Source of the DNA: Escherichia phage HMD-P3
DNA length: 64,000 bases
Sequence record: PQ462667.1
Reading direction: 5' to 3' (one strand)
In this document: positions 1 to 63,518 of the stretch, in pieces
Layout: every line of letters starts with the position of its first letter
How positions within the stretch are numbered: the stretch's first letter is position 1
Notes under the pieces: generated by a model
What the model was told of the DNA's origin: nothing
The model's input: only the letters and a program-made list of their open reading frames with translations
The model's database searches: none
Position numbers and translations under genes: made by a program

Positions 1-225
1 TACAGCCAGGCGCCGTCGCCACTGAGCCAATCCCCCATATTTGAATGAAAAGTAAGTCGGTTAAACTCAAGGTGGAATATTTCAGGATTTCCTGACTTTA
101 CCCCTAAAGGCAACTCGCCTAATTACTTCTCATTCAGATATGTTTCCAAATTAGATAAATATTATATCAAGTTTTATAGTATTGGGCAAGTCAAATTTTA
201 AAGAACTTGCCCAATGCTGTATTAG

Positions 226-501
226 TTAGTCGAACTTAGGAGTGACAGTTAAGGAGAACGGAAGTTCAAAAACTTCTTCGCCCTCATCACTAACAGTGAT
301 TACACGACCTTTAAGTTCAGACATTGAAATATCAATATCAGCTTTTGCATCTGGAGCCATGCCAGCTTCAACACATTTAGCTTTAATTTCCGGCAGAAGT
401 TCTACATCGTAGAAATAAAGCCATTCAATCTCACCTTCCCAGCCTTCCCAGGATTTACAGATTGCACTTTCAATACCAGCTGCTATAACACGATTTTGCA
501 T
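226..501 (-). CDS. hypothetical protein (91 aa)
   Basis: Intact ORF in the minus-strand early block; no recognisable motif. Confidence 0.45.
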   Translation of the reverse strand: MQNRVIAAGIESAICKSWEGWEGEIEWLYFYDVELLPEIKAKCVEAGMAPDAKADIDISMSELKGRVITVSDEGEEVFELPFSLTVTPKFD

Positions 502-591
502 TCGTTAACTCCTTCATCAATTTATACAACTATTATACCAGAAATTTAAAGCAAAAGGCAAGTACATTTTTAAAAATTCTGTTTGGAGGAG

Positions 592-1726: not shown

Positions 1727-1747
1727 GAATTTATAAGATATATTATA

Positions 1748-2317
1748 TTAGAAATTTAGCTTCATAGCAAGAAAATTTTTCAAGTTTTCGGTAGACATCT
1801 CATCCACATCTACAGGAGAAACAAATCCATTTAATTGTCTAGCAAACTTTTCACCAGCAGGATCGTTGTCCCCAACAGCTACTAATTTGAAAGGTAATAA
1901 TTTCAGTTGCTTTAATAACGCTTTTCCTGGAGAAGAACCCAGCATTGCCAGGGCTGGATAACCAGCATTATGTAATGCAACTGCCTTAAATACAGATTCA
2001 GCAATCAATACTACTTTTTCATCTCCATTGAGAGTTTCTAGTCCCCATACACACTGTGTAGTGGAGTAGGTAAAATATTTAGCCTCAAAGGGGCACTTAC
2101 CATGCCCTTTTGGAGCAGAAGGATTATACGTCTGATAGCCCCGCAACATCCCAGAGAAGTCATACAATGGGACTGTTAGCCACCCTTCCGGGCTTAACCA
2201 GCAATGATATTTATCTGTATCAAATCCTCTAGATAAGAGGTGCTGTGTTAGCTCATCAACATTCATATTTGGTTCCTCTCTCAAATTTATAGATATATTA
2301 TACAGAGAATTTAGCAT
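1748..2317 (-). CDS. Toprim-domain protein (189 aa)
   Basis: C-terminal half VVLIAESVFKAVALHNAGYPALAMLGSSPG...KLVAVGDNDPAGEKFA matches the Toprim E...DxD pattern of DnaG-type primases; no zinc-binding or helicase-interaction region. Confidence 0.55.
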   Translation of the reverse strand: MLNSLYNISINLREEPNMNVDELTQHLLSRGFDTDKYHCWLSPEGWLTVPLYDFSGMLRGYQTYNPSAPKGHGKCPFEAKYFTYSTTQCVWGLETLNGDEKVVLIAESVFKAVALHNAGYPALAMLGSSPGKALLKQLKLLPFKLVAVGDNDPAGEKFARQLNGFVSPVDVDEMSTENLKNFLAMKLNF

Positions 2318-2340
2318 TCAAGCAATCAAATTTTTTAACT
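2283..2340 (-). promoter_or_regulatory. T5-type early promoter (minus strand)
   Basis: Reverse complement carries the recurring ...tttgattgcttgaatgctaaattctctgtataatatatctataaattt... architecture shared with about 10 other intergenic copies. Confidence 0.55.
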
Positions 2341-6129: not shown

Positions 6130-6178
6130 ATGAATATATTATACAGAATTTAAAGGCATTTAGCAAATAAATTTTTAA
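6130..6178 (-). promoter_or_regulatory. T5-type early promoter (minus strand) upstream of the tRNA-containing transcription unit
   Basis: Reverse complement aaaatttatttgctaaatgcctttaaattctgtataatatattcataaatt closely resembles T5 PN25 (-35 TTGCTa, -10 TATAAT, A/T-rich upstream). Confidence 0.6.
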
Positions 6179-6807: not shown

Positions 6808-6862
6808 ATTTATGGAAGTATTATACGGAAATTTAAGTAGTTAAGCAAGTAAATTTTTAAGT
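6808..6862 (-). promoter_or_regulatory. T5-type early promoter (minus strand)
   Basis: Reverse complement cttaaaaatttacttgcttaactacttaaatttccgtataatacttccataa. Confidence 0.55.
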
Positions 6863-7647: not shown

Positions 7648-7705
7648 ATTTAAAAATATATTATACATATAATTTAGTAGATTAGCAAATACATTTTTAA
7701 ATTGT
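7648..7705 (-). promoter_or_regulatory. T5-type early promoter (minus strand)
   Basis: Reverse complement aaaaatgtatttgctaatctactaaattatatgtataatatattttt. Confidence 0.55.
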
Positions 7706-8946: not shown

Positions 8947-9016
8947 ATTTGTTTTCCTTTTATTGTTTTCTCAAATTTATGAATATATTATACAGAATTT
9001 TGGAGCCGGAAGCAAA

Positions 9017-10525: not shown

Positions 10526-10608
10526 TATTTGTTTTCCTTTTTGTTTATCAATTTATGAAGTATATTATACGAGAATTTGAAGCGTTTAGCAAATGAATTT
10601 TTTAAAAA

Positions 10609-10887: not shown

Positions 10888-10963
10888 AAAGCCCTCCTCA
10901 CTTTCAATATGAATATTATACTAAATTAGAGGGCTTTAAGCAAGTGAATTTTTAATTTATTTA

Positions 10964-11440
10964 TTACATCTCAGCCATTTCAGCTTCAGTAATAACTGTA
11001 TTACACAATGCATCTACAGCTTCATTACCACTAATACCAGAATGTCCTTTGACCTTAATAAAGGTAGGGTTAGTGTTATGAAAGTTGATATACTGCTGTG
11101 TTAATTTAAATGCTTCCTGCCAAAGTTCTAGATTAAGAGGAACTTCACCATCTGCTTTCTTCCATCCTTTCCTTTGCCAAGAAAACATCCAACTTTCCAT
11201 GCCATTTTTGCAATAAGCAGAGTCAGTATAGATAGCAATTGGTCTATTATCTTTTTTAACAGACCAACGTAGAGCTTCTACAATAGCTGTGAGTTCCATC
11301 TCATTATTTGTAGTTTTAGGATTATAACCAGATTTAGAACCTAAACGATCGTCGTTATCATCATAGACAATAAAACCCCAAGCACCTGGACCTGGATTAG
11401 ACTTACAAGCACCATCTGTGTAAATGTGGAAAACGCTCAC
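10964..11440 (-). CDS. rnhA: ribonuclease HI
   Basis: N-terminal IYTDGACKSNPGPGAWG and downstream TNNEMELTAI...IYTDSAY...GHSGISGNEAVDAL match the RNase H fold motifs. Confidence 0.85.
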   Translation of the reverse strand: MSVFHIYTDGACKSNPGPGAWGFIVYDDNDDRLGSKSGYNPKTTNNEMELTAIVEALRWSVKKDNRPIAIYTDSAYCKNGMESWMFSWQRKGWKKADGEVPLNLELWQEAFKLTQQYINFHNTNPTFIKVKGHSGISGNEAVDALCNTVITEAEMAEM

Positions 11441-11985
11441 TTATTAAGTTCCTCTACTGGTGGGTAATAGTTGGTATAGAAATCTTCTATAACTGCTTCG
11501 CTACCATGAAGTGTTTTTCTTAGTTCATTAGCCTTTATGACCGCACTTTCTAGATCTAAGTAGTCAAAAACACCCCCGTAAATATTTTTACCATTATTAT
11601 CAATTACCTGTACTTGCCATTTCTGTAGTTGTTTGTTCCAGTGTACACCTAGATATCCAGATTTACTCGATGCGGTACAATTTCTATTATTAGACTGGCT
11701 TGTAGCTTCTCTTAGATTTATCCACCTATTATCTGACCTAATTCTATTTTTGTGGTCTATTAAATCAGGTATTGATCCTGTCATGTATAGAAAGGCTAAC
11801 CTATGTGCTAAATAATCTATTTTATCTATCTTAATAGTTATATAGCCATCTTTTCTTAGGTATCCAGCGGGCGAACCTGCTTTTCCTCCCCTACCACGAC
11901 TCACCTTATTAGTAAATATACCAGTATCTGGATCATAGATTAGTATTTCTTTTAATCTTTCTTGGCTAGGTAGCTTTTTACTCAT
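11437..11985 (-). CDS. HNH homing endonuclease with AP2-type DNA-binding domain
   Basis: HNH motif DHKNRIRSDNRWINLREATSQSNNRN; C-terminal GYLGVHWNKQLQKWQVQV...GGVFDYLDLESAVIKANE resembles an AP2 domain; free-standing between rnhA and the next gene. Confidence 0.75.
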   Translation of the reverse strand: MSKKLPSQERLKEILIYDPDTGIFTNKVSRGRGGKAGSPAGYLRKDGYITIKIDKIDYLAHRLAFLYMTGSIPDLIDHKNRIRSDNRWINLREATSQSNNRNCTASSKSGYLGVHWNKQLQKWQVQVIDNNGKNIYGGVFDYLDLESAVIKANELRKTLHGSEAVIEDFYTNYYPPVEELNK

Positions 11986-12361
11986 CTAACCATCCTATGT
12001 CTATACTAAGTAGTGCTTTTATTCCTGTAATACCTGTACCATAAGTATTATATCGAATAGCACTTCTGCTCTTTACTTCAAGTATATTTTCATGCTCTGT
12101 ATTTTCTAGAATTTCTGTAGATATACCTAAATATCCTAATTGATCTTCCTCGTCCCAACCCATATCTTCTAGAAGATTTAGACGTAACTCTACCTTCTCA
12201 TCTCCATTTCCTACAGAGTAGTGGTCTTCTAAAGTCCTGAATTTAGAAGTGATAGAATCTAGTATTAATAATACCTGTTCCTTAGTAATAGTTTCTTTAT
12301 CACCCTGTAAGTAATTGGAGTAATTCAGAAGGGCTTGTTCTAATTCAATTTCTTTACTCAT
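11978..12361 (-). CDS. hypothetical acidic protein (127 aa)
   Basis: ORF overlapping the HNH gene start by 8 nt; promoter with a palindrome upstream. Confidence 0.5.
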   Translation of the reverse strand: MSKEIELEQALLNYSNYLQGDKETITKEQVLLILDSITSKFRTLEDHYSVGNGDEKVELRLNLLEDMGWDEEDQLGYLGISTEILENTEHENILEVKSRSAIRYNTYGTGITGIKALLSIDIGWLDE

Positions 12362-12387: not shown

Positions 12388-12440
12388 TATATTATATTTG
12401 AAATTGTACTCAATAAGCGAGTACAATTTCAAATATAATA
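12388..12440. promoter_or_regulatory. perfect 17-bp inverted repeat (7-bp spacer) overlapping a promoter
   Basis: tatttgaaattgtactc-aataagc-gagtacaatttcaaata; the right arm runs into a TATAAT element on the minus strand. Confidence 0.5.
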
Positions 12441-14989: not shown

Positions 14990-15050
14990 CTCACTATTTC
15001 AGGAATATTATAGCAAATCTGGTAGAGATTAGCAAGTAAAATTTCAAAGA
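14990..15050 (-). promoter_or_regulatory. T5-type early promoter for nrdB
   Basis: Reverse complement ...ttttacTTGCTAatctctaccagatttgcTATAATattcc (17-bp spacer). Confidence 0.55.
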
Positions 15051-15081
15051 AAAAGGAGACCCGAAGATCTCCTTGTTTTTA
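15041..15081 (-). terminator. hairpin terminator downstream of nrdA
   Basis: Stem aaggaga/tctcctt with 8-nt loop, flanked by A/T runs on both sides. Confidence 0.5.
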
Positions 15082-18541: not shown

Positions 18542-18826
18542 TCCTATAGTGTACTTCGCTAACAGAGGATCAACAAAAAGATCTTGTTTATCAACTTACA
18601 AATATATTATACCAATATATACAGTAAAAAGCAACTACAATTTTAAATAAGCCTATGATATTGCATTTAAATAAAAAATTTGCTTGCTTTTAACGTGAGA
18701 TGTGTGATACTAGATAATCATTTTATATCGCGTGCACGAGTGCGTGATTATACAATTTTTAATAGAGATTGGCAAATAAAATTTTTTGACTCAGATCATG
18801 TTACAGAACTTTATAGTAAAATATTG

Positions 18827-18855
18827 TTGACATCCGCCCTCGAATGAGTTATAAT
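18827..18855 (+). promoter_or_regulatory. consensus sigma70 promoter (TTGACA-17-TATAAT) for nrdD
   Basis: TTGACAtccgccctcgaatgagtTATAAT, then RBS GAAGGAGAG and ATG at 18885; lies in a divergent promoter region with further candidate -10 elements. Confidence 0.65.
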
Positions 18856-18884
18856 AGTAGTCTTAGTTAGAGAAGGAGAGTATA

Positions 18885-20759
18885 ATGAATCGCAATGAAG
18901 AACTAAAGTATAAAGAAATGCAGGCGTTAATTAGAAACTGCAAAGAGATTATCGAAGGGTCAGCAGATGAAGAGCTGCTGTTTAATAATGCTAATAAACC
19001 CTCAGAACGTTTCCCTACACAAAGGGATATGCTTGCAGGTGAATTGAGTAAGTATCTGATTCTAGAAGAAATGCCAATTCAGATTCGAAATGCTCATATG
19101 ATTGGGGATATTCATTTCCATGATGCTGATTATGCTGCATTAGGCATGACTAACTGTTGTCTGGTAGCTCTGGAAGATATGCTGAAGAATGGTATGAAGG
19201 TTGGTAATGCTGAAATTAGCACTCCAAACTCTATCACTACTGCGGCGGCTATTACTGCTCAGATTATCACTCAGGTTAGCTCTCATCAGTATGGTGGTAC
19301 TTCTGTAGATCGCCTTGATGAAGTATTAGCCCCTTATGTTCGTAAATCCTATGACAAAAATCATGCGTTTGCAAAACGTTGGACTAAGGATGAAGCCAAA
19401 GCATCAGTAATGGCTACGGAGATGACTGAAAAGGAAGTCTATGATGCCTGTCAGGGTCTAGAGTATGAAATCAATACGATGTTCAACTCTAACGGTCAGA
19501 GTCCATTTATTACCTTTGGTTTTGGTCTAGGAACTTCTTGGGAAGCACGTCTAGTACAGAAAGCAATACTGAAAGTACGCATGGATGGTTTAGGTATCAA
19601 TAAACGTACAGCTATCTTCCCGAAACTGGTATTTGTACTTCGTGATGGAGTAAATATGAAACCAGGAGATGTTAATTATGACATCAAGAAGTTAGCTATG
19701 AAATGTACTGCTGAACGTATGTATCCAGACTATATCAGCTATGATAAGGTTGTGGAAGTTACTGGGGACTACAAAGTTTCTATGGGTTGTCGTTCATTCC
19801 TAGCTGCTACAGAAGATGGTGAAACTGCCGGTCGTAATAACTTAGGTGTTGTTTCTGTAAACTTGCCTAGAATTGCTATCGAAGCTGAAGGAAATATTGA
19901 CCTATTCTTTGATTTGCTTGAGCTACGTGTAGATACAGCGTTAAAAGCGTTGGAGTGGAGAGTTGATCGCTTAAAATACATTCAAGCTAAAGCTGCACCC
20001 ATCCTGTATATGTCAGGAGCCTTTGGACTGCGCTTGGAGCCTGATGAATATGTATTCGATCATTTCTATAACCGTGCTTCTGTATCTCTAGGGTATATTG
20101 GTTGCCATGAAATGCTACAGTTTATGTTTGGCAAAGATGTAGACACAATGTCCGAGACCTGCATCAAGTTTGTTCAGCGTGTATTGCAGTACATGCGGGA
20201 TAGAGTCGATCAGAAGAAGGAAGAAACTAAATTAGGTTATAGCCTGTATGCTACACCATCAGAATCCCTATGTGACCGTTTTTGTCGTCTAGACCGTGAA
20301 TATTTCCCAGAGCATGAAGATATTCTGTCCAAAGGATACTACACTAACTCGCACCACCTTGATGTAGAACGTAAAGTTGCTCCCAATGTGAAATTTGATT
20401 ATGAATCTAACTTTACTCCGATTGCTTCTGGTGGGTGCATTTCCTATGTAGAACTACCGGATATGAAACGATTCCCAGATGCACTGGAATGGGTTATTAA
20501 TTATGCTGCTAGTAAGGTTCATTACTTCGGTATTAATACCCCAGTGGATTCTTGTGGTAAATGTGGATTCTTAGGTGAAACAATAGCATCCGAAGATGGA
20601 TTTAAGTGCCCTATCTGTGGTAATCATGACCCCGAAACTCTTGAAGTAACTCGTCGAGTTTGTGGGTATCTTGGAAATCCGGGTGCTCGTCCATTTAACC
20701 CCGGCAAACAGCACGAGGTGATGGGCAGAGTGAAGCATCAGGATATTCGAGCTAAGTAA
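18885..20759 (+). CDS. nrdD: anaerobic ribonucleoside-triphosphate reductase (class III)
   Basis: C-terminal glycyl-radical motif TRRVCGYLG; C-terminal Zn-ribbon Cys pairs (CGKC...CPIC); 624 aa. Confidence 0.9.
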   Translation: MNRNEELKYKEMQALIRNCKEIIEGSADEELLFNNANKPSERFPTQRDMLAGELSKYLILEEMPIQIRNAHMIGDIHFHDADYAALGMTNCCLVALEDMLKNGMKVGNAEISTPNSITTAAAITAQIITQVSSHQYGGTSVDRLDEVLAPYVRKSYDKNHAFAKRWTKDEAKASVMATEMTEKEVYDACQGLEYEINTMFNSNGQSPFITFGFGLGTSWEARLVQKAILKVRMDGLGINKRTAIFPKLVFVLRDGVNMKPGDVNYDIKKLAMKCTAERMYPDYISYDKVVEVTGDYKVSMGCRSFLAATEDGETAGRNNLGVVSVNLPRIAIEAEGNIDLFFDLLELRVDTALKALEWRVDRLKYIQAKAAPILYMSGAFGLRLEPDEYVFDHFYNRASVSLGYIGCHEMLQFMFGKDVDTMSETCIKFVQRVLQYMRDRVDQKKEETKLGYSLYATPSESLCDRFCRLDREYFPEHEDILSKGYYTNSHHLDVERKVAPNVKFDYESNFTPIASGGCISYVELPDMKRFPDALEWVINYAASKVHYFGINTPVDSCGKCGFLGETIASEDGFKCPICGNHDPETLEVTRRVCGYLGNPGARPFNPGKQHEVMGRVKHQDIRAK

Positions 20760-20794
20760 GCTAATCAGCCGGGTTGCTAGTCGACCTGGCTTTT

Positions 20795-20858
20795 ATTTTA
20801 TTTGCTTTCAGCCAAAAATTTATATATAATAGATTTATAAATTTGAGAGGAGAAAGAT
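20795..20858 (+). promoter_or_regulatory. T5-type early promoter
   Basis: tttatttgctttcagccaaaaatttatatataatagatttataaatttgagaggag, PN25-like. Confidence 0.6.
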
Positions 20859-23759: not shown

Positions 23760-24380
23760 TGATTTTTATTAGCTGAACTCTGATTACCGAGTCATTTTGG
23801 CTCGGTTTTCTCTATGCTCAAGGACACTGATAGCACCTTTGGGAAAATTTTACTTGCAGGATGCCCAAAATCTTGATATAATATTTATATTGAATTGAGA
23901 GACATTAGTAAAAATTGATTTTGCTAATTTTTCTTGTTTACAATCCGCGATACGGAACAGTTAGGCTGCCCCATTAAGGGTTGTTTTAACTGTTACGTGT
24001 TAGTTTTTAAACAAATAATTAATAGAATACTTAGCGATCTACATCCCGTAGGAACCCTGGTAAGGCCTCGAAGCAACCTAGTGTGAGGTGGTTGTGAAGT
24101 GAGACGGGAAGAGTGAAAAACTCTGAGAAGTGATGACGTAAGGTATACTGCATCTAGTATGAGCTAGTATATGAAGCATTAGGTGAGCAAATCTGGCTTA
24201 GCGGCCATCCTCAAGGATTTGTGCGGTATAGTGAAGCGGCAGTGTAGCGTGAAAGGGGAAGTTGCCACCCCCCTTCAGTATTTGCGATTAATTGTTGAGA
24301 AATTGACAGTAACAGTTGTTCTATTCTTTCTGAATAGTCCTAAAGAAAACTTATTTCATTTCCAACACAGGAGTATTGTT

Positions 24381-27170
24381 GTGTTCTCAATCCTACAAGG
24401 TCATGCAGGATTTCATCGCGATTTAGCCACAGGCAATTGGCGGGAAGTTAAAGCAGAAAACTATCTTTTTGCTAAAAGATTTTCCTCAAAGCATCCTGAA
24501 GGTAAACCAGCTTCAATGCCCTTCAAGTTTGATGTAATTGATGAAGTTGATCCTCAAACCCTAGTAGAAATGCTCCCTCTTATGAGACGTTTAACGTCTG
24601 ACCCTCATATCGTTGCGGTACGAGGTCGATGTCTTGCACCTAAAAATAATGTGCGACGTAAGAAGGGCAACTTTAATGTATCTAACCCAAGTCATATAAT
24701 TGCAATGGACGTGGATGGTATTGTAGATACAGGTGGTTGTAACAAGTTTGATCTTGTTGGCATGGCTCGACATATTATTAGAATGTTAAATAGTATTAGT
24801 GAGGATATGTTTCCTCTTGATGCAGGGTTTATCGCTCATGCATCGTCTTCGGCTGGGCTAAAACCAGGTATCCGAATGCACTTAATACTAGAATCTAATG
24901 TTAAAGTAACTCAGGGTCAAATCAAATTCTTATTTACATCTATCAACGAAAGTAGTAGACAAAAGTATGGCTTTGATATTGCCGACTTAGCTTATTACTC
25001 TTCCGTACAGCTCCATTATTTTGCAGATCCGTTATTTACTGATGGTATAGTAGATCCGTTTAAAGCGGAGGGTGCTTCACGTCTGGTATTTGTTAAGGGT
25101 TCTAAGGTAAACTTACCCAATAATCTGGTTGATTATGAAACAACTAGAGGTGAGTTTAAAGAGGAGTTTTACTCTTTACTCGACCAAATTAAGGGTAAAA
25201 AAGCTGCCTCTGATAAAGTAGAGGAAACTATCAGCGAACTAGAAGAAGCTGAGGATGGAGTGTACCTACGTATCATACCTAAACTCTATCACAGAGCTTT
25301 AGAGGATGGTGTTGATTTTGCGTGGCTAGAAAAAGAAATCCGTCCAGCCTTATCAGAATATATTGCAACTAAAGATAATAGTCGTAATATTCAAGATTAC
25401 TTTAATAACGGTCGTAAACAGGCTCTGAAAGCGTTTGTTAATAATTCTAAACGCGATATACCTGATGTTTTAAAAGGTATTCCACTTAAAAAGCTAGAAA
25501 CTAATTCTTTAGAAACTGATAACTTCTTGAAATTAAATACTGTACCACCAGAAGGTTATATGACTTTTGTAAAAGCAAGTCTAGGTACAGGTAAAACTAC
25601 GGCGGTTGTGCGTTGGTTAGATTCAGGAGTTATTAAGGGTAATTTCTTAGCAATTACCAATACTCGAGCACTGGTATCTTCAAATGCTAAGAAATTTAGT
25701 GCAGGACAATATGATAAGTCTGTAGATATGCTTAATTTTAAGCGTGGCGCTATTGACCGTATGTCCACAACTATTCACTCTTTGCATAAGTTCAAGAGTT
25801 TTATTGGTCAAATCGATGCAATCTTTATCGATGAATGTGATGCTGTAATGAATGACCTATTATTCGCCCCGGTTGTTAAACAACGTCGTGAATGTATTCA
25901 GGTTCTTCGGGATATTCTTGCAACTGCAAAAATCATTATATTATCTGATGGGGATATTAGTGCTGAAACAATTGAAGCATATGGTTCTTTGATTGAGTTT
26001 GATAAACCGGTTGCATTTTATAATCACCACCGTAAGATGCTGTCAAAAGCTCATGCTTATGAATTCCCTGATGAATCCAGTATTTGGGTTGCACTTCAGA
26101 CTTCTCTAGAGATGGGTGAGAAGTCTATCCTAGTATCTGACTGTGGTCCAGATGAACTGAATGAGAAGGGTATGGCATTGCGTCGTAATACGGGTGCGTT
26201 AGTTAAGGAAATCCACTCAAACTCTACGTCTGATGTAGATATTCGACGTATTCTGGATTACACAACTAATGAGCTAATTGACCAACAAATTGATTGCTTA
26301 TTATGTAGTCCATCCGTAACGAGTGGTGTTGACTTTAACTATTTTGATAACGTATTCGTTATCACTAGAACCTCAAACCAAGCGCCAAACATGCGTTTTC
26401 AAGCAATCAGGCGCGACCGTGGCGCTCAGAACATTTATTATTTTATTGATAAATCTACGAGTGGATTCTCCGCAGGTTCTGAACAATATAACATTGATGA
26501 AGGTTGGCTGGAGTTAGCACAGCAATTATACGCACGTCGTAGGGAGCTGGAATCTAGGAACTATACTAGTACTTTACGTTATTACTTGCTTGATCAGGGT
26601 GCAACTATTGATATTTTCAGTGAAAGCTGGGGAACTATCGAAGGTGCAGGAAAAGAGTATACGGAAGAGCGAATCAAAGCTATTTTGTATTCAACTCCTG
26701 ATTATTGTGCTCCACGCCATGCAGATGCGTATGAGGCTAAACTACTTCTTGTTCGCTATTATCATCTTGAGTCTATTAAAGATGTAACAGTTGAGCACGT
26801 TGAACAATATATCAAGGATAAACCGAATGATCGAGCTGCATTCTTCCATAAGATGCACGAGATGTTCTGGGAAGATATTAAGAAGTGTTCAAATGTCACT
26901 ATCAAACCATTCATAGAAGCTCTGAAAGGTAAGAAGAAAGATTTCTTCCTTAAAACAGGTCAGAGTGCTAACCCAAAATATGCAAGAATGTATCTTGGTA
27001 TGATGGGTATTGGTAAGGATATGAACACTGAAAATATTGTAGACTGGTACAGAACCTATTGTAAAATCGAGTGTATGCCAATCCCGTATAAGTTTATGAC
27101 TGATGAGGAGAAACATATGCATGATGAAGCAATGGCAGAGCTAGGTGCTAGAAATGACAGTGAAGAATAA
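24381..27170 (+). CDS. putative replication initiator / origin-binding P-loop NTPase (helicase-like), about 929 aa
   Basis: Walker A FVKASLGTGKTTAV and Walker B IFIDECDAV in the central region. The track ORF begins at 24183, but the first 66 codons have atypical codon usage and no RBS; an in-frame GTG at 24381 follows ACAGGAG by 8 nt. Start is uncertain. Confidence 0.55.
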   Translation: MFSILQGHAGFHRDLATGNWREVKAENYLFAKRFSSKHPEGKPASMPFKFDVIDEVDPQTLVEMLPLMRRLTSDPHIVAVRGRCLAPKNNVRRKKGNFNVSNPSHIIAMDVDGIVDTGGCNKFDLVGMARHIIRMLNSISEDMFPLDAGFIAHASSSAGLKPGIRMHLILESNVKVTQGQIKFLFTSINESSRQKYGFDIADLAYYSSVQLHYFADPLFTDGIVDPFKAEGASRLVFVKGSKVNLPNNLVDYETTRGEFKEEFYSLLDQIKGKKAASDKVEETISELEEAEDGVYLRIIPKLYHRALEDGVDFAWLEKEIRPALSEYIATKDNSRNIQDYFNNGRKQALKAFVNNSKRDIPDVLKGIPLKKLETNSLETDNFLKLNTVPPEGYMTFVKASLGTGKTTAVVRWLDSGVIKGNFLAITNTRALVSSNAKKFSAGQYDKSVDMLNFKRGAIDRMSTTIHSLHKFKSFIGQIDAIFIDECDAVMNDLLFAPVVKQRRECIQVLRDILATAKIIILSDGDISAETIEAYGSLIEFDKPVAFYNHHRKMLSKAHAYEFPDESSIWVALQTSLEMGEKSILVSDCGPDELNEKGMALRRNTGALVKEIHSNSTSDVDIRRILDYTTNELIDQQIDCLLCSPSVTSGVDFNYFDNVFVITRTSNQAPNMRFQAIRRDRGAQNIYYFIDKSTSGFSAGSEQYNIDEGWLELAQQLYARRRELESRNYTSTLRYYLLDQGATIDIFSESWGTIEGAGKEYTEERIKAILYSTPDYCAPRHADAYEAKLLLVRYYHLESIKDVTVEHVEQYIKDKPNDRAAFFHKMHEMFWEDIKKCSNVTIKPFIEALKGKKKDFFLKTGQSANPKYARMYLGMMGIGKDMNTENIVDWYRTYCKIECMPIPYKFMTDEEKHMHDEAMAELGARNDSEE

Positions 27171-27387
27171 AAAATGGGAAACAAGGAAGTTCCCAGTAAA
27201 AGAACGTAAAGTTCCTGTTTACGACACTTCGGAAAAGCTATGTAGGGTGGTACCGCATAGATTAGTTGGCATCCCTAACATATCCGAGTGGTTACTTAAA
27301 CAACGGAAAACAAACGTGTCTCTTCGCATCGGCTTTGAGTTAGATAAAGTCTATGCTGAACTTGCTTCTTTGCTCAAGGAATCGTAA
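27145..27387 (+). CDS. hypothetical small protein (80 aa)
   Basis: ORF overlapping the end of the preceding gene; weak. Confidence 0.3.
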   Translation: MLEMTVKNKKWETRKFPVKERKVPVYDTSEKLCRVVPHRLVGIPNISEWLLKQRKTNVSLRIGFELDKVYAELASLLKES

Positions 27388-27452
27388 AAATTTATTTGCT
27401 TTCAGGAAAATTTTTCTGTATAATAGATTTATAAATTTGAGAGAGGAGTTTA
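27383..27452 (+). promoter_or_regulatory. T5 early promoter, near-identical to PN25
   Basis: aaaatttatttgctttcaggaaaatttttctgtataatagatttataaatttgagagaggagtt matches my recollection of T5 PN25 with very few differences. Confidence 0.75.
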
Positions 27453-27455
27453 AAT

Positions 27456-28160
27456 ATGGCTGGTTCTCGTAGAAAGAAACACATTCATGAAATCCCGGAT
27501 GAAGTCTTTAAAAAGGTTATAGAGCATCTGGAGAACGGTGGTACTAAGAAAGCAGCATGTGAAATGCTCGGCGTATCGTCCAATCCAACTATGGAAAGGA
27601 TGATTGAAGAATGGCAAGACCGCCAGATCCAAGTTGCCGAAATGAAGAAAAAGAAACGTGGCACACTTATTGAAGGCATCGAGTTAGCTAACGTTATTGA
27701 GCAGTATTTATCTGGTGATTCTTTTGAAGAAATTGCCGATCGTAATTATCGCTCTGTAGCAATGGTTAAATCTGTTCTGGAACGATACGGTGCTCTACTT
27801 CGTTTGAATGATATTGTAGATCCATTGAATCCTCCGATTATTCCTGATGATGCTGTAGCAGAAGAATTTGCAGTTGGTGAACTTGTTTGGGTTCCTGGAT
27901 ACCAGTGTATCGGTGAAATCAAAAAAGCAATGGATAATCCTGTTGGTTGCTACCGTGTATGGCTTCTATCAGAAGGCAAACAACAGAACGTCCATTATAT
28001 GAATTACGAGCTGGCTTCTGTTAAACATCTGGAAAAGTTAGGGGTAGACGTAAAATCTCTGGGGTATAAATGGACTCGTGAAGAAATTATTACGTTGATT
28101 AACGAAGCTGTTAAGGCTGCCCTGAAACTTGATAAAGAAAAAGGAAAACGCCGTGAGTAA
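27456..28160 (+). CDS. DNA-binding protein with N-terminal HTH (possibly T5 D5-like)
   Basis: N-terminal IEHLENGGTKKAACEMLGVSSNPTMERMIEEW resembles an HTH; downstream of the PN25-like promoter. Confidence 0.5.
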   Translation: MAGSRRKKHIHEIPDEVFKKVIEHLENGGTKKAACEMLGVSSNPTMERMIEEWQDRQIQVAEMKKKKRGTLIEGIELANVIEQYLSGDSFEEIADRNYRSVAMVKSVLERYGALLRLNDIVDPLNPPIIPDDAVAEEFAVGELVWVPGYQCIGEIKKAMDNPVGCYRVWLLSEGKQQNVHYMNYELASVKHLEKLGVDVKSLGYKWTREEIITLINEAVKAALKLDKEKGKRRE

Positions 28161-28383: not shown

Positions 28384-28489
28384 CAATTACAGAAAAATTT
28401 CAGTTGCTTAATCCTATAATTCTTGATATAATATTCTCATAGTTTGAAAGAACTATTCTGTTTAATTCTTAATTAAGGAAATATAAAAT

Positions 28490-28900
28490 ATGACTACTCC
28501 AACTCAGTGGACTGATGAACTGTTCGAAAAAATGTCTTCCGAATACGTTGCTCGTATGGAGCAATTCCCAGAGGATGAACGTCCGGGTGTTAGCATGGAA
28601 ATTGTTAGCGAAATTGCCCAGGAAAATGGTGTAACTCCGAACGGTTTTCGTATGAAGCTGACTAAAGCAGGTTTGTATATCAAGAAAGCTGCTGGCTCTG
28701 CTTCTAAATCTAGCGCATCTACTGGAGAAAAAGCTTCTGGTGGTTCTCGTACTTCCAAAGCCCAGGCGCATGCAGATCTTCGTTCAGCGTTCTCTGATGC
28801 TGGCCTAGCACCAGATTTTCTGGATGATGCAATTATCGACAAACTGACCGGTAAAGCGGCTGCTCATCTGGCAGAAGCAATCCGAGCTATCACTAAGTAA
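28490..28900 (+). CDS. hypothetical protein (136 aa)
   Basis: ORF with RBS (AAGGAAA) and its own promoter-like element (cttgatataatattctcat) upstream. Confidence 0.5.
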   Translation: MTTPTQWTDELFEKMSSEYVARMEQFPEDERPGVSMEIVSEIAQENGVTPNGFRMKLTKAGLYIKKAAGSASKSSASTGEKASGGSRTSKAQAHADLRSAFSDAGLAPDFLDDAIIDKLTGKAAAHLAEAIRAITK

Positions 28901-29283: not shown

Positions 29284-29592
29284 ATGAGCGAACAGGTAAA
29301 TCAAAACTATGAAGGACACGTTGATGACCAGTCCATCATACTTTGGGAGAAGGAGGGAGAACAAGTAAGATTAACAGTATCTGAATTTCGTGGGAATCTA
29401 TACATGGGTATTCGTTACTGGCTTCTTGATATTAATGATGAATGGTTTCCAACGAAATCTGGCTTCTCTTTTCCTTACACCCTAGAAACAACATCACAGC
29501 TTTTCTATGCGTTTACACAGATTCTTAGCGAATCTGAGGTTTTACATGAAGTACAGAAACGAGCTGAAGAACTCAAAGCCAAGAATGCCTAG
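29284..29592 (+). CDS. PC4/Sub1-like ssDNA-binding protein
   Basis: VRLTVSEFRGNLYMGIRYW fits the PC4 C-terminal domain signature; a PC4-like protein is documented for T5. Confidence 0.55.
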   Translation: MSEQVNQNYEGHVDDQSIILWEKEGEQVRLTVSEFRGNLYMGIRYWLLDINDEWFPTKSGFSFPYTLETTSQLFYAFTQILSESEVLHEVQKRAEELKAKNA

Positions 29593-29604
29593 TTCTTGGC
29601 TTTT

Positions 29605-29676
29605 TCTTTATAAATGTATTTGCTTTCAACTCAGTTTTGTTATATAATATTTATATAAATTGATGAGAGGATCAAT
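29605..29676 (+). promoter_or_regulatory. T5-type early promoter
   Basis: tgtatttgctttcaactcagttttgttatataatatttatataaattgatgagagg. Confidence 0.55.
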
Positions 29677-29866
29677 TATGAACATAACACTTCCAAAAAT
29701 TCAAGCAAAGTTAAACCTAGTATCAACTGCTAGAAATAACTATCTAGATAACTTTGGTGGAATCAACGATAAAGCGTACAAAGATGCGTGGTTGAAAGAA
29801 GCGCAAGAGTTAGCCGATCTCACTACTCAGTATAGTAAAGAACTACAGGTAGAAATGAATGACTAA
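29660..29866 (+). CDS. hypothetical protein (68 aa)
   Basis: ORF immediately upstream of, and overlapping, the ligase N-fragment. Confidence 0.4.
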   Translation: MMRGSIMNITLPKIQAKLNLVSTARNNYLDNFGGINDKAYKDAWLKEAQELADLTTQYSKELQVEMND

Positions 29867-30830
29867 TGTAAAAGACTTTATTAAACGTTGTCAAGAAGCA
29901 TATTACCAGGGAATGTCTTTAATCTCTGACGAAGAATATGATCGTCTGATTAAAAGATTTCCGTTAGAAGAAGAGATCGGGCCTAAGGGTGATATTCCAC
30001 ATCTGTATCGTATGTATTCTTTACAGAAAGTTTATTATAATCGTGGAGATAAACCTCCGTTTAACCCATTAGGTCAGGTAGAAACTGATAAGTTAGATGG
30101 TTGTGCGATTTCTCTGTTATATATTAATGGCGAATTTGTTCAAGCACTAACTCGTGGTAATGGTATTCTAGGGAACGATGTCACAAGCAACGTAAGATTG
30201 CTGAACATTCCTAAAAAGATTTCCCAAAAAGTACCTACTCAAATCACTGGTGAAGTTCTAATTACAAAAGAAGTAGAAAATAAACGTAACTTTGCCTCTG
30301 GTGCTATTAACCTCAAAGATAGTGATGATTTCGTACAGCGTATCGGAGAAGGTGGTTTAATCTTCGTTGCATACGGTATCCAGTGTTCTGGTGAATCTGT
30401 AGGTATTACAGAAACGTATTTAAAAGATATGCTTTGGCTAGAGAATGAGAACTTCTTAACAGTTGTTAATGTGCGTTCCTTCTTTAAGTGGATTCCAACG
30501 GATGGTAAAGTTGTTCGTATTAATGACAACAACAAATTCTTCCGAGAAGGCTGGACTAATAAATTTCCTCGTGGAGCATTCGCTATTAAAGAGGATGAAG
30601 AAGGTGAGATTACTACTCTTACTAAAGTTGAATGGCAGGTAGGGGCTTCTGGTAAAGTAACTCCAGTTGGTTATTTCGAACCGGTAATTATTGATGATGC
30701 TACAATTGTTAAGGCGACTCTTAATAACGTTGATTATATTAACTCTCTCGATCTAGAGATCGGTTGCCAGATTCGAGTAATTCGTGCTGGTGGTGTAATC
30801 CCGTGCATAGTAGAGCGAGTATACGATTAA
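29859..30830 (+). CDS. ligA: NAD-dependent DNA ligase, N-terminal fragment (adenylation + OB domains)
   Basis: EEYDRLIKRF, adenylation lysine motif KLDGCAISLLY, TRGNGILGNDVTSNV and an OB-domain tail align to bacterial LigA. Confidence 0.85.
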   Translation: MTNVKDFIKRCQEAYYQGMSLISDEEYDRLIKRFPLEEEIGPKGDIPHLYRMYSLQKVYYNRGDKPPFNPLGQVETDKLDGCAISLLYINGEFVQALTRGNGILGNDVTSNVRLLNIPKKISQKVPTQITGEVLITKEVENKRNFASGAINLKDSDDFVQRIGEGGLIFVAYGIQCSGESVGITETYLKDMLWLENENFLTVVNVRSFFKWIPTDGKVVRINDNNKFFREGWTNKFPRGAFAIKEDEEGEITTLTKVEWQVGASGKVTPVGYFEPVIIDDATIVKATLNNVDYINSLDLEIGCQIRVIRAGGVIPCIVERVYD

Positions 30831-31029
30831 TACATAACCCTTTGCTACCCATCTACCATATCGGAATTATAAAGTGGTTATTGACATTTTCGCCGCTTAG
30901 GTATATACTATTATCATTCAGTTGAGGGATAGAAAGTTATGGCGAGGGTAAGCAAAGTTAGTTAAAATTGTAGTTGCTAAATGCTTAAATACTTGCTATA
31001 ATATTTATATAAATTGATAAGGAAGAAAT

Positions 31030-34127: not shown

Positions 34128-35014
34128 GTAGAATAACAGAACTACTTGATCTGAAAGGCATTGAATATAAAGACACAGGTGGGGACATCCTCATCTGTTG
34201 TCTCAATCCAGATCATGACGATAAACACCCAAGTTTGCGTATTGATCCTGAAACAGGTATTATGCACTGCTTGAGTTGTGGCTTCGGTAAAGGTATACCG
34301 AGCATTTACCATTATTTTAATGAGACTCAGTACCGACAGTCCCCAAGGCTATCGCAAGTACGCAAAAAGATTTCAGAGATTAGGAATGGATCAACGAATC
34401 TTGCAATTCCTGAATCTGCTTACCTTTTCGAAGGTGATTTCCGAGGTATAAGTTCTAAGACCTTGAAGAAATATTTTGCTTTCCAACACCAAGCAGACTG
34501 GGAAGGCAGAATTGTATTCCCAATCACAGATGCTGTTGGACGCAATATCCTATTTTTGGGTCGTTCTATAAACAGTTCTGCCCCTCCTAAATACTTAGTA
34601 AAACCAAAACAAGTTTCACCACCGATTTTCCCTGTACGATATAATACTCCAGTTCTTATTCTAGTTGAAGGTATCTTTGATATGCTGAACCTAGAGGATA
34701 ATGGTATAGACTATGCTTCTTGCTGCTTTGGTACACATCAGTTTACTTCGGATAACATTGCAGATAAGTTCAGTCCTTATATTATTGCGGGTGTAAAAGT
34801 TGTTGTTATCTTACTAGATAATGATGCTTCTGGTAATAAGGCTGCACAAGCATTGGCCAAATTAATTCGTACAAAAACGCGTTTAACACCTGTAGTGGCT
34901 AACTTTCTTCTGCCTGAGGGTAAAGATCCTGGTGAGTTAAACAAAGATGAAATTGATATGTTAGCAAAACGTATTGAAATTTTAGTTGCTGAATCGCTTA
35001 AAGATTTGGTATAA
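34124..35014 (+). CDS. DnaG-type DNA primase
   Basis: N-terminal zinc-binding CCLNPDHDDKHPSLRIDPETGIMHCLSCG; Toprim VLILVEG...VVILLDNDASGNKAA. Confidence 0.8.
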   Translation: MSRITELLDLKGIEYKDTGGDILICCLNPDHDDKHPSLRIDPETGIMHCLSCGFGKGIPSIYHYFNETQYRQSPRLSQVRKKISEIRNGSTNLAIPESAYLFEGDFRGISSKTLKKYFAFQHQADWEGRIVFPITDAVGRNILFLGRSINSSAPPKYLVKPKQVSPPIFPVRYNTPVLILVEGIFDMLNLEDNGIDYASCCFGTHQFTSDNIADKFSPYIIAGVKVVVILLDNDASGNKAAQALAKLIRTKTRLTPVVANFLLPEGKDPGELNKDEIDMLAKRIEILVAESLKDLV

Positions 35015-35076
35015 TATATTGGTAAGTTAGAGAAGAAACACTGAAGTTATACTTACTTACCAAGAGGAGATTAAAT

Positions 35077-38134: not shown

Positions 38135-39483
38135 AGGTTGTTATATCTAATAAAGCCTATTTCAAGCCCGATGATGAACTTTGGGATTATTGTAGTAAAC
38201 AAACCACTTATCACATAGAGACAATGACTAGTAAATACCCTATTATGTATAAGAATAGTGGTGTTGTTGCCAAAGAGATTAAGTGGATTCCTATTACGCG
38301 TCTGGATTTACTAGATGCTAAAGGAGTAAAATACGAATTAGTCGATAAACGTACATTAGCTCCTGTAGATATACCAAAACCTAAGTTCAAGCTGCGTGAA
38401 GAAGATCAGCTTCCAATATACGAAGAATGCGATGATACCTGTATTATTAATGGTAAGCCTGGATTTGGTAAAACTATCCTAGCCCTTGCACTTGCGTATA
38501 AATTTGGCCAGAAAACTTTGGTAATTTGTACCAACACATCTATTCGTGAAATGTGGGCTGCAGAAGTTCGTAAATGGTTTGGGTTTGAACCGGGTATCAT
38601 AGGTTCTGGGAAATACAATATTGATCCACCAATTGTGGTCAGTAATATTCAAACAGTGAATAAACATGCGAATAATCTGTCTAAAGTATTCGGTACTGTT
38701 ATAGTTGATGAAGTTCACCATTGTGTGGCCACAACTTTCACTAACTTCCTAGAAATATCATGTGCTCGCTATAAGATTGGACTATCTGGAACATTAAAAC
38801 GTAAAGATGGTCTACAAGTTATGTTCAAAGATTTCTTTGGATATAAGGTCTTTAGCCCACCGGTTAATAATACTGTTGCACCTACAATCCATAGGTACTC
38901 CGTGCCTGTTGAGTTATCAGGAAACCAAAACGTACCGTGGGCATTACGTGCTAATGATGTGTACAACCATCCTGAATATCGAGAGACTATTATAAATCTA
39001 GCACATTTATACGTGAACATGGGACATAAAGTACTCATTGTAAGTGACAGAACAGAGTTAATCCAAACAGTACTAGAAGCTCTTGCACAGCGTGGTGTTA
39101 CAACATATGAAATTATAGGGGCAACCCACTTAGATGACCGATTAAAAATTCAGGAAGATATAGCAAAAGGTGGACCTTGTGTACTTGCAGCAGCTCAAAG
39201 TATCTTCTCTGAGGGTATTTCTCTAAATGAGTTGTCTTGTTTAATAATGGGAAGTCTCATTAATAATGAATCTCTCATTGAACAGCTTGCAGGACGTGTT
39301 CAACGTATTGTCGATGGTAAACTCGACCCTATTGTTGTAGATTTAATTATGAAAGGCGGCACTGGACTAAGACAGGCTTCTGGACGTATGGCAGTATATC
39401 GTAATAACGGGTGGAAAACTATTACTATGACTCCGGAGAAAGCAGTTCAATTAGCTAAAATTGCATTTGGCAACAGCTCATAA
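38131..39483 (+). CDS. SF2 DEAD/DEAH-box helicase (T5 D10-like)
   Basis: Walker A GKPGFGKT, DEVH box VIVDEVHHC, helicase C-terminal domain; 450 aa. Confidence 0.8.
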   Translation: MKVVISNKAYFKPDDELWDYCSKQTTYHIETMTSKYPIMYKNSGVVAKEIKWIPITRLDLLDAKGVKYELVDKRTLAPVDIPKPKFKLREEDQLPIYEECDDTCIINGKPGFGKTILALALAYKFGQKTLVICTNTSIREMWAAEVRKWFGFEPGIIGSGKYNIDPPIVVSNIQTVNKHANNLSKVFGTVIVDEVHHCVATTFTNFLEISCARYKIGLSGTLKRKDGLQVMFKDFFGYKVFSPPVNNTVAPTIHRYSVPVELSGNQNVPWALRANDVYNHPEYRETIINLAHLYVNMGHKVLIVSDRTELIQTVLEALAQRGVTTYEIIGATHLDDRLKIQEDIAKGGPCVLAAAQSIFSEGISLNELSCLIMGSLINNESLIEQLAGRVQRIVDGKLDPIVVDLIMKGGTGLRQASGRMAVYRNNGWKTITMTPEKAVQLAKIAFGNSS

Positions 39484-39489
39484 ATGATG

Positions 39490-39625
39490 TATAATATATA
39501 CATAAATTTGAGAGAGAAAGTTTCGGATTGATAAGAAAGTCCGAAGCAGAAAAATAAAAATTTTAGTTGCTAAATTCTCTCGAAATCTAGTATAATATAT
39601 ACATAAATTCGAGGAGAAAACAAAA
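39490..39625 (+). promoter_or_regulatory. two tandem T5-type early promoters
   Basis: tataatatatacataaatttgagagag and tagtataatatatacataaattcgaggag about 100 bp apart, separated by a small hairpin. Confidence 0.5.
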
Positions 39626-44073: not shown

Positions 44074-44948
44074 TGAGTAAATCCTGGGGAAAATTTATTG
44101 AAGAAGAGGAAGCTGAAATGGCTTCCCGTCGTAACCTAATGATTGTTGATGGAACTAACTTAGGCTTTCGCTTCAAGCATAATAACAGTAAAAAACCATT
44201 TGCCTCAAGTTATGTTTCCACTATTCAGTCTCTAGCAAAATCTTATTCCGCTAGAACTACAATAGTTTTAGGAGATAAAGGGAAGTCTGCATTCCGCTTA
44301 GAGCATCTCCCTGAGTATAAAGGGAATCGAGATGAGAAATACTCGCAGCGTACGGAAGAGGAGAAAGCGTTAGATGAGCAGTTCTTCGAGTATTTGAAAG
44401 ATGCTTTCGAACTATGTGAAACTACATTCCCAACATTCACTATTCGTGGTGTAGAAGCAGATGATATGGCGGCTTATATCGTTAAACTCATTGGACATCT
44501 TTATGATCATGTTTGGCTAATTTCTACCGATGGTGACTGGGATACTTTATTAACTGATAAAGTTTCTCGCTTCTCTTTCACAACACGTCGTGAATATCAT
44601 CTTCGTGATATGTATGAGCATCATAATGTTGACGATGTAGAGCAGTTTATCTCTCTGAAAGCAATTATGGGTGATTTAGGAGATAATATCCGAGGTGTTG
44701 AAGGTATTGGGGCAAAACGCGGATATAATATTATTCGTGAATTTGGTAATGTTCTGGATATTATTGATCAGCTTCCATTGCCTGGAAAACAGAAATATAT
44801 ACAGAATTTAAATGCTTCGGAAGAATTGCTTTATCGAAACCTAATTCTGGTTGATTTACCTACCTACTGTGTGGATGCTATTGCTGCTGTAGGTCAAGAT
44901 GTATTAGATAAGTTTACAAAAGATATTTTGGAGATTGCAGAACAATGA
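44073..44948 (+). CDS. flap endonuclease / 5'-3' exonuclease (T5 D15-like)
   Basis: N-terminal NLMIVDGTNLGFRF and downstream acidic clusters typical of the 5' nuclease family; 291 aa matches T5 D15. Confidence 0.9.
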   Translation: MSKSWGKFIEEEEAEMASRRNLMIVDGTNLGFRFKHNNSKKPFASSYVSTIQSLAKSYSARTTIVLGDKGKSAFRLEHLPEYKGNRDEKYSQRTEEEKALDEQFFEYLKDAFELCETTFPTFTIRGVEADDMAAYIVKLIGHLYDHVWLISTDGDWDTLLTDKVSRFSFTTRREYHLRDMYEHHNVDDVEQFISLKAIMGDLGDNIRGVEGIGAKRGYNIIREFGNVLDIIDQLPLPGKQKYIQNLNASEELLYRNLILVDLPTYCVDAIAAVGQDVLDKFTKDILEIAEQ

Positions 44949-56003: not shown

Positions 56004-56070
56004 AGTTAATTTCTCCTCTTTAATAACAATATTATAATAGTATTAGAAAATTTTATCAAGAAATTTTTAT

Positions 56071-63029: not shown

Positions 63030-63515
63030 TTATCTGCGAAGTGACCTACGTGGAGGCTGATACCTCACTGTTACATTTATTTCTGCTAAACCATATGGGG
63101 CCAGTAGACCCTCATCTGTACTAACTGATGTAATGATCATATCAGTTGCCTCACATGGGAAGGTCGATCCATTAGGTTTACTAACAGTATATTCTAAATT
63201 TCCACCTGTGTCAATAACGGTTTTTATATCCGCTACGAGTTTTTCAAGTTGCTCTTGAATGTCTGTTTTCTCTTTATCGTACACCAGGATTGGAAGTTCT
63301 AAAAACATCCACTGTTGGCCCGAAGGAAGATACTGCCCAGTTTCAGTTCCGATATGAACTGCCACATAAGGAAACTCTCGTATTTCCTCAAATTTATAAG
63401 TTTGACGAGAAACGTTTCCATATAGGTTATTAAAATATTCGTCAGGTTGAGAACCATCCAACTGTTTAGATATACGGTCAACCAGAGCTTGTGCAATACT
63501 TGTTCTATGATCCAT
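63030..63515 (-). CDS. tail completion / head-tail joining protein (161 aa)
   Basis: ORF upstream of the major tail gene; by synteny. Confidence 0.45.
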   Translation of the reverse strand: MDHRTSIAQALVDRISKQLDGSQPDEYFNNLYGNVSRQTYKFEEIREFPYVAVHIGTETGQYLPSGQQWMFLELPILVYDKEKTDIQEQLEKLVADIKTVIDTGGNLEYTVSKPNGSTFPCEATDMIITSVSTDEGLLAPYGLAEINVTVRYQPPRRSLRR

Positions 63516-63518
63516 TTA

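Follow-up and report, generated by a model that had tools for sequence, protein, structure and literature searches.

Work on the early promoters of bacteriophage T5, notably PN25, dates from the 1980s onward, and they now serve routinely in expression vectors and in studies of promoter escape; PN25 itself reportedly goes back to Gentz and Bujard in 1985. The N25 promoter has a UP element centred near -49, TTGctt and TATAAT hexamers 17 bp apart, an A/T-rich spacer that is UP-subsite-like near -19, and a 6-bp discriminator with G at -5 (PMC12464699). Its native purine-rich initial transcribed sequence (ITS) aids fast escape, and an 'anti' ITS cuts productive output about tenfold (PMC12464699). 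In T5, all gene classes are transcribed by the host sigma-70 holoenzyme; in vivo, the P15A and Ppol promoters were early and PG25 and PJ5 late, and for P15a primer extension demonstrated early in vivo activity (PMC7472727). The known T5 early promoters have a common ATATT discriminator (PMC7472727, Klimuk et al. 2020). The phage protein gpT5.026 weakens contacts between RNA polymerase and the discriminator, and ATATT was proposed to explain its class-specific effects (PMC7472727).

The DNA analysed here (the window) is a stretch of 64,000 nucleotides from Escherichia phage HMD-P3 (PQ462667.1). Twenty-two sites of one family were located in it. With a probability of about 95%, they serve a T5-like phage (Tequintavirus) as strong early promoters dependent on sigma-70, and are organised as ~70-nt promoter-plus-leader units. 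Motif, statistics, placement, orthology and selective conservation were computed here, and RNA polymerase binding, +1 and early timing come from T5 experiments. Early timing, +1 positions and sigma-70 initiation were carried over to the window promoters by analogy and would hold for them as in T5.

The copy at 27383-27452 had been identified, in a sequence-only reading of the window, as PN25 almost base for base. This proved accurate. Published PN25 (primers IM102/IM103 of PMC4447248, a sequence that agrees with the T5 RefSeq feature) was identical to window 27386-27450 at 64 of 65 positions (E 1e-30), and the annotated T5 feature was identical to the window site at 70 of 73. T5 (NC_005859) carries 'promoter P-N 25' at 63043-63117, just 5' of D2 (T5.111, 234 aa, 63122-63826). 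The window site lies between the T5.110 ortholog (upstream) and the D2 ortholog, with flanks collinear with T5. By sequence identity and by position before D2 alike, the copy is the T5 PN25 ortholog, predicted to drive D2. Its parts are as follows, with the basis of each in brackets.

27372..27393, plus strand: UP-element-like A/T tract, about -59 to -38 (sequence)
27396..27401, plus strand: -35 TTGCTT, the same in T5 and in published PN25 (alignment)
27402..27418, plus strand: 17-bp A/T-rich spacer TCAGGAAAATTTTTCTG with 'spacer UP-like' block AAAATTTTT, the same as in T5 (alignment)
27419..27424, plus strand: -10 TATAAT (alignment)
27425..27430, plus strand: 6-bp discriminator AGATTT, with G at -5 kept (alignment)
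27431..27450, plus strand: putative ITS ATAAATTTGAGAGAGGAGTT, identical to the native N25 ITS (alignment; +1 by homology)
27456..28160, plus strand: D2 ortholog, 234 aa, start codon 7 nt past the Shine-Dalgarno block (ORF, protein comparison)

By homology with N25, transcription would start at A27431. The only difference from T5 PN25 within the core is T for C at -1 (base 27430). Upstream, an 80-aa ORF (27145..27387) ends within the A/T tract, which covers its final codons and TAA stop (27385-27387). Downstream, the Shine-Dalgarno block GAGAGGAG lies at 27441-27448, within the ITS, and the D2-ortholog product has 100% amino acid identity to D2 of several Salmonella phages.

PN25 was one copy of a family of at least 15 sites said to share an A/T-rich upstream region, TTGCTA or TTGCTT, a 17-bp spacer and TATAAT. 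The window contains exactly 15 TTGCTW-N17-TATAAT matches, where dinucleotide-preserving shuffles predict 0.06; in 100 shuffles the count never reached 15. By strand, the exact matches divide into ten minus-strand sites (<18.7 kb) and five plus-strand sites (20.8-31 kb). When the 15 sites were aligned, conservation extended well outside the hexamers, in three blocks: AAAAATTT 5' of the -35, an AAATT-rich spacer, and downstream TATAAT-ATATT-CATAAATTGA. Of the 49 bits in the family model, ~26 (small-sample corrected) come from positions other than the hexamers. A promoter profile had been suggested as a check. The 68-column profile built from the 15 exact sites scored 20 window sites at 21-68 bits, all at <39.5 kb; 40 random Markov windows scored 9.3 bits at most. 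A relaxed scan was anchored on TATAAT and allowed 16-18-bp spacers and one -35 mismatch. Profile scan, relaxed hexamer scan and mapping of T5 annotations together yielded 22 members, 15 exact and 7 variants.

Generic TTGACA-based sigma-70 scans gave no overall enrichment (found/expected 45/53, 59/57 and 47/64). They are uninformative for this family because TTGCTT copies, including the PN25 copy, match TTGACA at 3 of 6 positions and go unregistered. An Rfam scan returned tRNAs only, with no RNA family overlapping the promoters, and Pfam searches with the small ORFs beside the promoters yielded no informative match.

Mapping of the NC_005859 promoters showed that nearly all other sites correspond one-to-one, as positional orthologs, to annotated T5 promoters; the T5 promoters with orthologs are P14a, P15c/b/a, P16-17, P-D/E33, P-H207, P-N26, P-K28a, P31A, P31B and ten unnamed ones. 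The mapped 75-nt T5 features were mostly 87-100% identical, eight of them at 75/75. The remaining members are given below, those without a stated method having been placed by exact match and T5 mapping.

161..189, minus strand: P14a ortholog, TTGCCC-17-TATAAT (profile scan, T5 mapping, hexamer scan)
532..561, minus strand: P15c ortholog, TTGCCT-18-TATAAT, upstream of ORF 226..501 (profile and hexamer scans, T5 mapping)
1742..1770, minus strand: P15b ortholog, predicted to drive a tRNA cluster (tRNA-Ser 1638-1726, tRNA 1557-1631)
2297..2325, minus strand: P15a ortholog
6138..6166, minus strand: P16-17 ortholog, predicted to drive an RNA/tRNA-Arg region (exact match, BLAST against T5)
6820..6848, minus strand: P-D/E33 ortholog
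7660..7688, minus strand: ortholog of unnamed T5 promoter 43067-43141
8987..9015, minus strand: ortholog of unnamed T5 promoter 44393-44467
10564..10592, minus strand: P-H207 ortholog, 75/75 identical to T5
10915..10943, minus strand: ortholog of unnamed T5 promoter 46337-46411
15007..15035, minus strand: member upstream of nrdB, with terminator-like hairpin 15053-15074 before the promoter
18606..18634, minus strand: member upstream of a phoH-like gene, 75/75 against T5
18747..18775, minus strand: TTGCCA-17-TATAAT, a weaker member within the divergent control region (hexamer scan and T5 mapping only)
20802..20830, plus strand: member preceded by terminator 20767-20791
23854..23882, plus strand: TTGCAG-17-TATAAT, upstream of a replication-origin-binding gene, long leader (profile and hexamer scans, T5 mapping)
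28404..28432, plus strand: P-N26 ortholog, upstream of D3 (28490..28900)
29620..29648, plus strand: member upstream of ligA, with terminator 29575-29603 before the promoter
30974..31002, plus strand: P-K28a ortholog, 75/75, upstream of ligB
34986..35015, plus strand: TTGCTG-18-TATAAT, before the DNA polymerase gene and within the primase gene's 3' end; probably T5 'Ppol', equated by position (profile and hexamer scans, T5 mapping)
39467..39495, plus strand: P31A ortholog, TTGGCA-17-TATAAT, 75/75, -10 at 39490-39495 (profile scan, T5 mapping)
39567..39596, plus strand: P31B ortholog, TTGCTA-18-TATAAT, 75/75, -10 at 39591-39596 (hexamer scan and T5 mapping only)

The P16-17 ortholog was placed from the BLAST table, and an indel adjoins the site. 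All 13 coordinates listed by the sequence-only reading hold a site, '39490' and '39590' being the -10 boxes of P31A and P31B. Four exact sites were absent from that list: 1742-1770, 10915-10943 and 18606-18634 on the minus strand and 28404-28432 on the plus strand. The described change of strand also holds, with 13 minus-strand members below 18.8 kb and nine plus-strand members from 20.8 to 39.6 kb. Every member (22/22) is co-oriented with the downstream gene or tRNA. The range of the family, 0.1-39.6 kb, corresponds to T5 35.4-75.6 kb, and the scans found 0 members in the late region (minus-strand tail genes, 45.4 kb to the window end).

A perfect TATAAT is present in 22 of 22 members and a TTGCTW -35 in 16, with the variants TTGCCC, TTGCCT, TTGCCA, TTGCAG, TTGCTG and TTGGCA. 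The 17-bp spacer occurs in 19 of 22; it measures 18 bp at 532-561, 34986-35015 and 39567-39596. Of the description given by the sequence-only reading, the -35 sequence and the spacer length need correcting for these variants. The 16 nt 5' of the -35 are 75-100% A+T, as had been claimed of the upstream region; the consensus there is ttAAAAtTttA, with AAAAATTT around -45 to -38, and the spacer consensus is aAatttt. Downstream, the consensus TATAAT-ATat.taTaAatT.gagA comprises an ATATT-type discriminator and an ATAAATT block. The sites thereby agree with the T5-type early class in hexamers and spacer, in A/T-rich upstream and spacer sequence, in the discriminator/ATAAATT block, and in early location and co-orientation. 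The downstream consensus has exceptions at 18747-18775 and 10915-10943; the former was counted as a member, though its downstream block is not family-like.

The sites had been called intergenic, which is correct for the cores of 19 of 22; the other three (1742-1770, 34986-35015 and 39467-39495) extend into the 3' end of the gene that precedes them. The distance from -10 to start codon is 33-37 nt in 13 of 22. The ribosome-binding octamer GAGAGGAG, proposed as a family feature, occurs exactly at only two sites (-10 at 20825 and 27419); elsewhere the proposal fails, and most other members have looser purine-rich Shine-Dalgarno blocks, e.g. GAGAGGAA, GAGAGGAT and AAGGAAG. The site at 20802-20830, the only copy besides the PN25 ortholog with exact GAGAGGAG, is also the paralog that published PN25 matches over the greatest length in BLAST (53 nt at 87%). 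Some members have long leaders (e.g. 23854-23882) or tRNA/RNA targets. Terminator-like hairpins lie directly 5' of several members (15053-15074, 20767-20791, 23786-23806 and 29575-29603).

PN25 is common in synthetic constructs, and a PN25-like stretch could in principle derive from contamination with a cloning vector (pQE- or pZ-type), or the matches could be chance products of A/T-rich DNA. The site is, however, embedded in collinear phage DNA, with the T5.110 ortholog upstream and a natural D2 start (ATGGCTGGTTCTCG) downstream. PN25-like sequence was found in 545 phage records, 478 of which carry at least 80% of the 86-nt query. Chance would supply 0.06 motif matches where 15 are observed. 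Both origins were refuted by synteny with T5 and by the motif statistics, and their probability is negligible.

On the promoter reading, the UP-like A/T tract would recruit the alpha C-terminal domains of host RNA polymerase, and sigma-70 would bind the near-consensus -35 TTGCTW, the 17-bp (sometimes 18-bp) A/T-rich spacer and the perfect TATAAT. An A/T-rich discriminator (ATATT or AGATT) follows the -10. The purine-rich ITS (ATAAATTGA-GAG...) would then promote quick promoter escape, and in many copies it continues without a break into the first gene's Shine-Dalgarno sequence. The promoters would cut the early region into short transcription units, divergent from a switch at ~18.7-18.8 kb, and several of these units would be insulated by the terminator hairpin immediately 5'. 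Individual window copies may be weak or silent, since of 19 T5 promoters defined in vitro just 11 yielded primer-extension products in vivo (PMC7472727).

Window and T5 were compared position by position across the members. The hexamers hardly differed (-10, 0/132; -35, 2/132), whereas the rate was 8.4% in the UP region, 8.0% in the spacer, 9.1% in the discriminator and 12.7% in the ITS, the last value being somewhat inflated by indels as the comparison was ungapped. Such a pattern indicates purifying selection. Several promoters were identical at 75/75 while their coding flanks were at 89-98%. In 22 of 22 members the T5 ortholog (mean 93.0%) was closer than the best window paralog (mean 70.5%; Wilcoxon p = 4e-5). 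As this holds in every copy, the sites are best understood as old, independently maintained functional sites and not as repeats that are spreading or being homogenised.

Mobile regulatory cassettes have a precedent in the PeSL promoter cassettes of T4-type phages. The ~70-nt repeats could likewise be primarily recombinogenic or mobile cassettes, or have arisen lately by duplication or gene conversion, in which case their similarity would reflect spread and not promoter selection. The copies do cross-match in BLAST (80-87% over 55-77 nt), and synteny breakpoints or insertions relative to T5 adjoin promoters at 5970/6120, 12388, 15000, 24001 and 29669/29847; a 62-aa ORF is inserted exactly between the promoter at 29620-29648 and ligA. 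Breakpoints near promoters are nevertheless expected, because insertions are tolerated in intergenic DNA only, and the similarity among paralogs is centred on elements with known promoter roles. Recent spread or homogenisation is excluded by the closer T5 ortholog in all 22 copies. Recombination as the primary explanation was rejected on the same figures (93% to the ortholog, 70.5% to the paralog) and is very improbable. The intergenic repeats are accounted for by the promoter family, as had been proposed.

The promoter architecture was also followed upstream of D2 orthologs in more distant phages. TTGCAA-17-TATAAT was found in Pectobacterium phage My1, TTGCTT-17-TATAAT...CATAAATTCGAGAGAGG in a Klebsiella Sugarlandvirus, and TTGCAC-17-TATAATAGATTCATAAA in Vibrio phage D414, whose D2 ortholog has 37% protein identity. 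No promoter occupies the PN25 position before the D2 orthologs of Proteus phage Stubb and Vibrio phage Pylo, so that this position is not universal in the family. When 50 kb of the D414 early region were scanned with the window-derived profile, 25 sites exceeded the random maximum; like the window members, they are laid out divergently and share the orientation of their genes.

Five T5 promoters that lie outside the family likewise have orthologs in the window: P12 (TTGACA/TAAAGT), P-K28b and P-J5 (TTGACA/TATACT), P-G25 (TTGATA/TATAAT) and the nrdD promoter, whose TTGACA-17-TATAAT at 18827-18855 is perfect. The downstream block common to the family is missing from all five. This distribution suits a reading in which the discriminator and ITS block (ATATT-CATAAATTGA) would also be the target of a phage regulator or RNA-polymerase-binding factor (gpT5.026, D5) in early-to-late shut-off. 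The retention of TATAATAGATTCATAAA upstream of D2 even in D414 points the same way, as do the weakening of the polymerase-discriminator interaction by gpT5.026 and the proposal of ATATT as a class determinant (PMC7472727). Against it, open-complex stability together with fast escape, properties intrinsic to the polymerase, is already a sufficient explanation of the native N25 ITS and discriminator (PMC12464699), the ITS is the block that varies most from the T5 orthologs, and operator-like symmetry is not evident. We consider such a regulatory target rather unlikely; as an idea it is already a published hypothesis (PMC7472727). Equally tentative is a joint reading, in which the extended architecture would be ancestral to Demerecviridae and the discriminator and ITS would have been retained as the target of a conserved phage RNA-polymerase modifier (e.g. 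a gpT5.026 homolog) for early shut-off, and not for promoter strength and escape alone.

The PN25 match had been said to fix the taxonomic assignment. The window is collinear with T5 NC_005859 from ~35.4 to ~100 kb, with ~92.5% weighted identity over 42 kb aligned, several indels and differences in HNH genes. Identity to Salmonella phages vB_SpuM_X5 and HMD-P5 was 97.5-97.7% over 24 kb, and HMD-P5, a near-best match, is classified in Demerecviridae, Markadamsvirinae, Tequintavirus. By ICTV convention, members of one species have genome-wide nucleotide identity of about 95% or more. The ~92.5% identity to T5 lies below this and places the phage outside the species Tequintavirus T5; collinearity with T5 and a near-best match within the genus place it in Tequintavirus. 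By these comparisons the window is that of a T5-like Tequintavirus, not T5 itself, closest to Salmonella phages. The PN25 match therefore indicates the group but not the species, given 92.5% identity to T5 and the 545 phage records with PN25-like sequence.

The finding as such is already known: the T5 reference annotates these promoters, and relatives carry the labels P-N-25-like and P-N-26-like. Its value is mainly one of annotation, a promoter map of this phage with 22 early-class sites and several non-family promoters with T5 counterparts. There is a modest comparative gain, in that the hexamers are frozen while their surroundings drift, the paralogs evolve independently, and the family reaches Vibrio T5-like phages.

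Compared with T5 PN25, the window copy has the same -35 TTGCTT, 17-bp spacer, -10, +1 to +20 ITS (ATAAATTTGAGAGAGGAGTT) and position before D2. It differs in T instead of C at -1, in a UP region with one A fewer and two A-to-G changes, in one additional T between the Shine-Dalgarno block and the ATG, and in belonging to a phage of a different species. In Salmonella phage S114 (NC_048006, Epseptimavirus), which belongs to another genus of the same subfamily, the sites before D2 and D3 are labelled 'Putative P-N- 25-like' and 'P-N-26-like' promoter, and window 27375-27460 (86 nt) is 96.5% identical.

With the T5 early promoter class as a whole, the family shares the A-tract, TTGCTW, the 17/18-bp spacer, TATAAT, the ATATT-type discriminator and the ATAAATT block (PMC7472727), and orthologs are 69-100% identical over an 82-nt block (mean 93%). 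The two sets differ at a few places. T5 promoter 46937-47011 has a degraded ortholog in the window (-35 TCGCTT at 12415-12420, -10 at 12391-12396), T5 promoter 81735-81809 has no window counterpart, its region being replaced, and small insertions lie beside some promoter copies in the window. Strong sigma-70 promoters with a UP element (lambda PR, rrnB P1) share with the family an A/T UP-like tract, near-consensus hexamers, a 17-bp spacer and the use of host holoenzyme (PMC12464699). Relative to these promoters, the family is set apart by its -35 TTGCTW, its 'spacer UP-like' block, its ATATT discriminator and its ITS, which is conserved, rich in purines and continuous with the ribosome-binding site.

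The early region switches strand at window 18600-18885, and the GC skew flips sign at the same place. The control region there is composed of opposed promoters of the T5-type early family (TTGCTW-17/18 bp-TATAAT) and of the general consensus type:

18600-18885, both strands: compact divergent control region, with promoters facing each other
18606-18634 and 18747-18775, minus: two family promoters, opposite the plus-strand promoter at 18827-18855
18827-18855, plus: perfect sigma-70 consensus promoter (TTGACA-17-TATAAT), upstream of nrdD
18885..20759, plus: nrdD (Pfam NRDD, 575 bits)

The plus-strand early genes meet the minus-strand tail genes at a hairpin:

45413-45443, both strands: strong bidirectional terminator hairpin of 13-14 pairs

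The adjoining tail-fibre region is not conserved between the window and T5, and T5 promoter 81735-81809 is not conserved in the window. Two orthologs of T5 late promoters were located on the minus strand:

56005-56079, minus: ortholog of P-G25 (74/75 identical)
63186-63214, minus: ortholog of P-J5, TTGACA-17-TATACT (75/75 identical)

The P-J5 ortholog lies within an ORF (63030..63515) and is not intergenic. The leader of the P-G25 ortholog, ATTAAAGAGGAGAAATTAACTATG, is identical to a ribosome-binding string that many pQE-type expression constructs carry; the string was found in 13 of the papers searched.

Further elements were noted on the minus strand:

1557-1631, minus: tRNA-like element (Rfam, 40.3 bits)
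5843-5914, minus: tRNA-like element (Rfam, 33.7 bits)
12397-12431, minus: perfect 14-bp inverted repeat, TTGAAATTGTACTC-gcttatt-GAGTACAATTTCAA

Neither tRNA-like element was called by ARAGORN. The element at 5843-5914 is downstream of the P16-17 ortholog, in the region matching the T5 ‘RNAX’ stable RNA. One T5 promoter has an ortholog with a degraded -35 (TCGCTT) in the window; the inverted repeat overlaps this ortholog, and promoter-like hexamers were detected on both strands there by the promoter scanner.

Gene content was compared with that of T5, yielding the following differences:

11437-12361, minus: insertion of ~950 bp, flanked by the genes for RNase H and thymidylate synthase
11437..11985, minus: HNH_3 endonuclease ORF within the insertion (51 bits)
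29678-29866, plus: 62-aa ORF, exactly between the promoter at 29620-29648 and ligA

The insertion also carries a 126-aa ORF. Conversely, the HNH genes hegH, hegI and hegJ of T5 are missing from the window. The 62-aa ORF overlaps the start of ligA (29859..30830), whereas T5 has no such ORF at this place and its promoter leader goes directly into ligA.

The D2 ortholog (27456-28160, plus) has the RefSeq product name ‘helicase’. Its sole Pfam match is to a helix-turn-helix, HTH_28, which at 22.1 bits falls short of the cutoff of 25. Pfam did not find a helicase domain, and the name therefore looks doubtful. Upstream of D2, the (GA)n run in the leader of the PN25 promoter differs in length among phages. 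T5 and the window have GAGAGAGGAG at this run, whereas Salmonella phage 1-29 has GAGAGAGAGAGGAG (locus position 301), a variation that suggests slippage in the leader/SD region.

The window-derived promoter profile was also applied to Vibrio phage D414 (record 24001-74000), a distant T5-like vibriophage, yielding 25 sites above the random maximum. In locus coordinates, the sites below 29.3 kb are all on the minus strand and those above 29.5 kb all on the plus strand, and several of the 25 have TAGCCA as a -35 variant.
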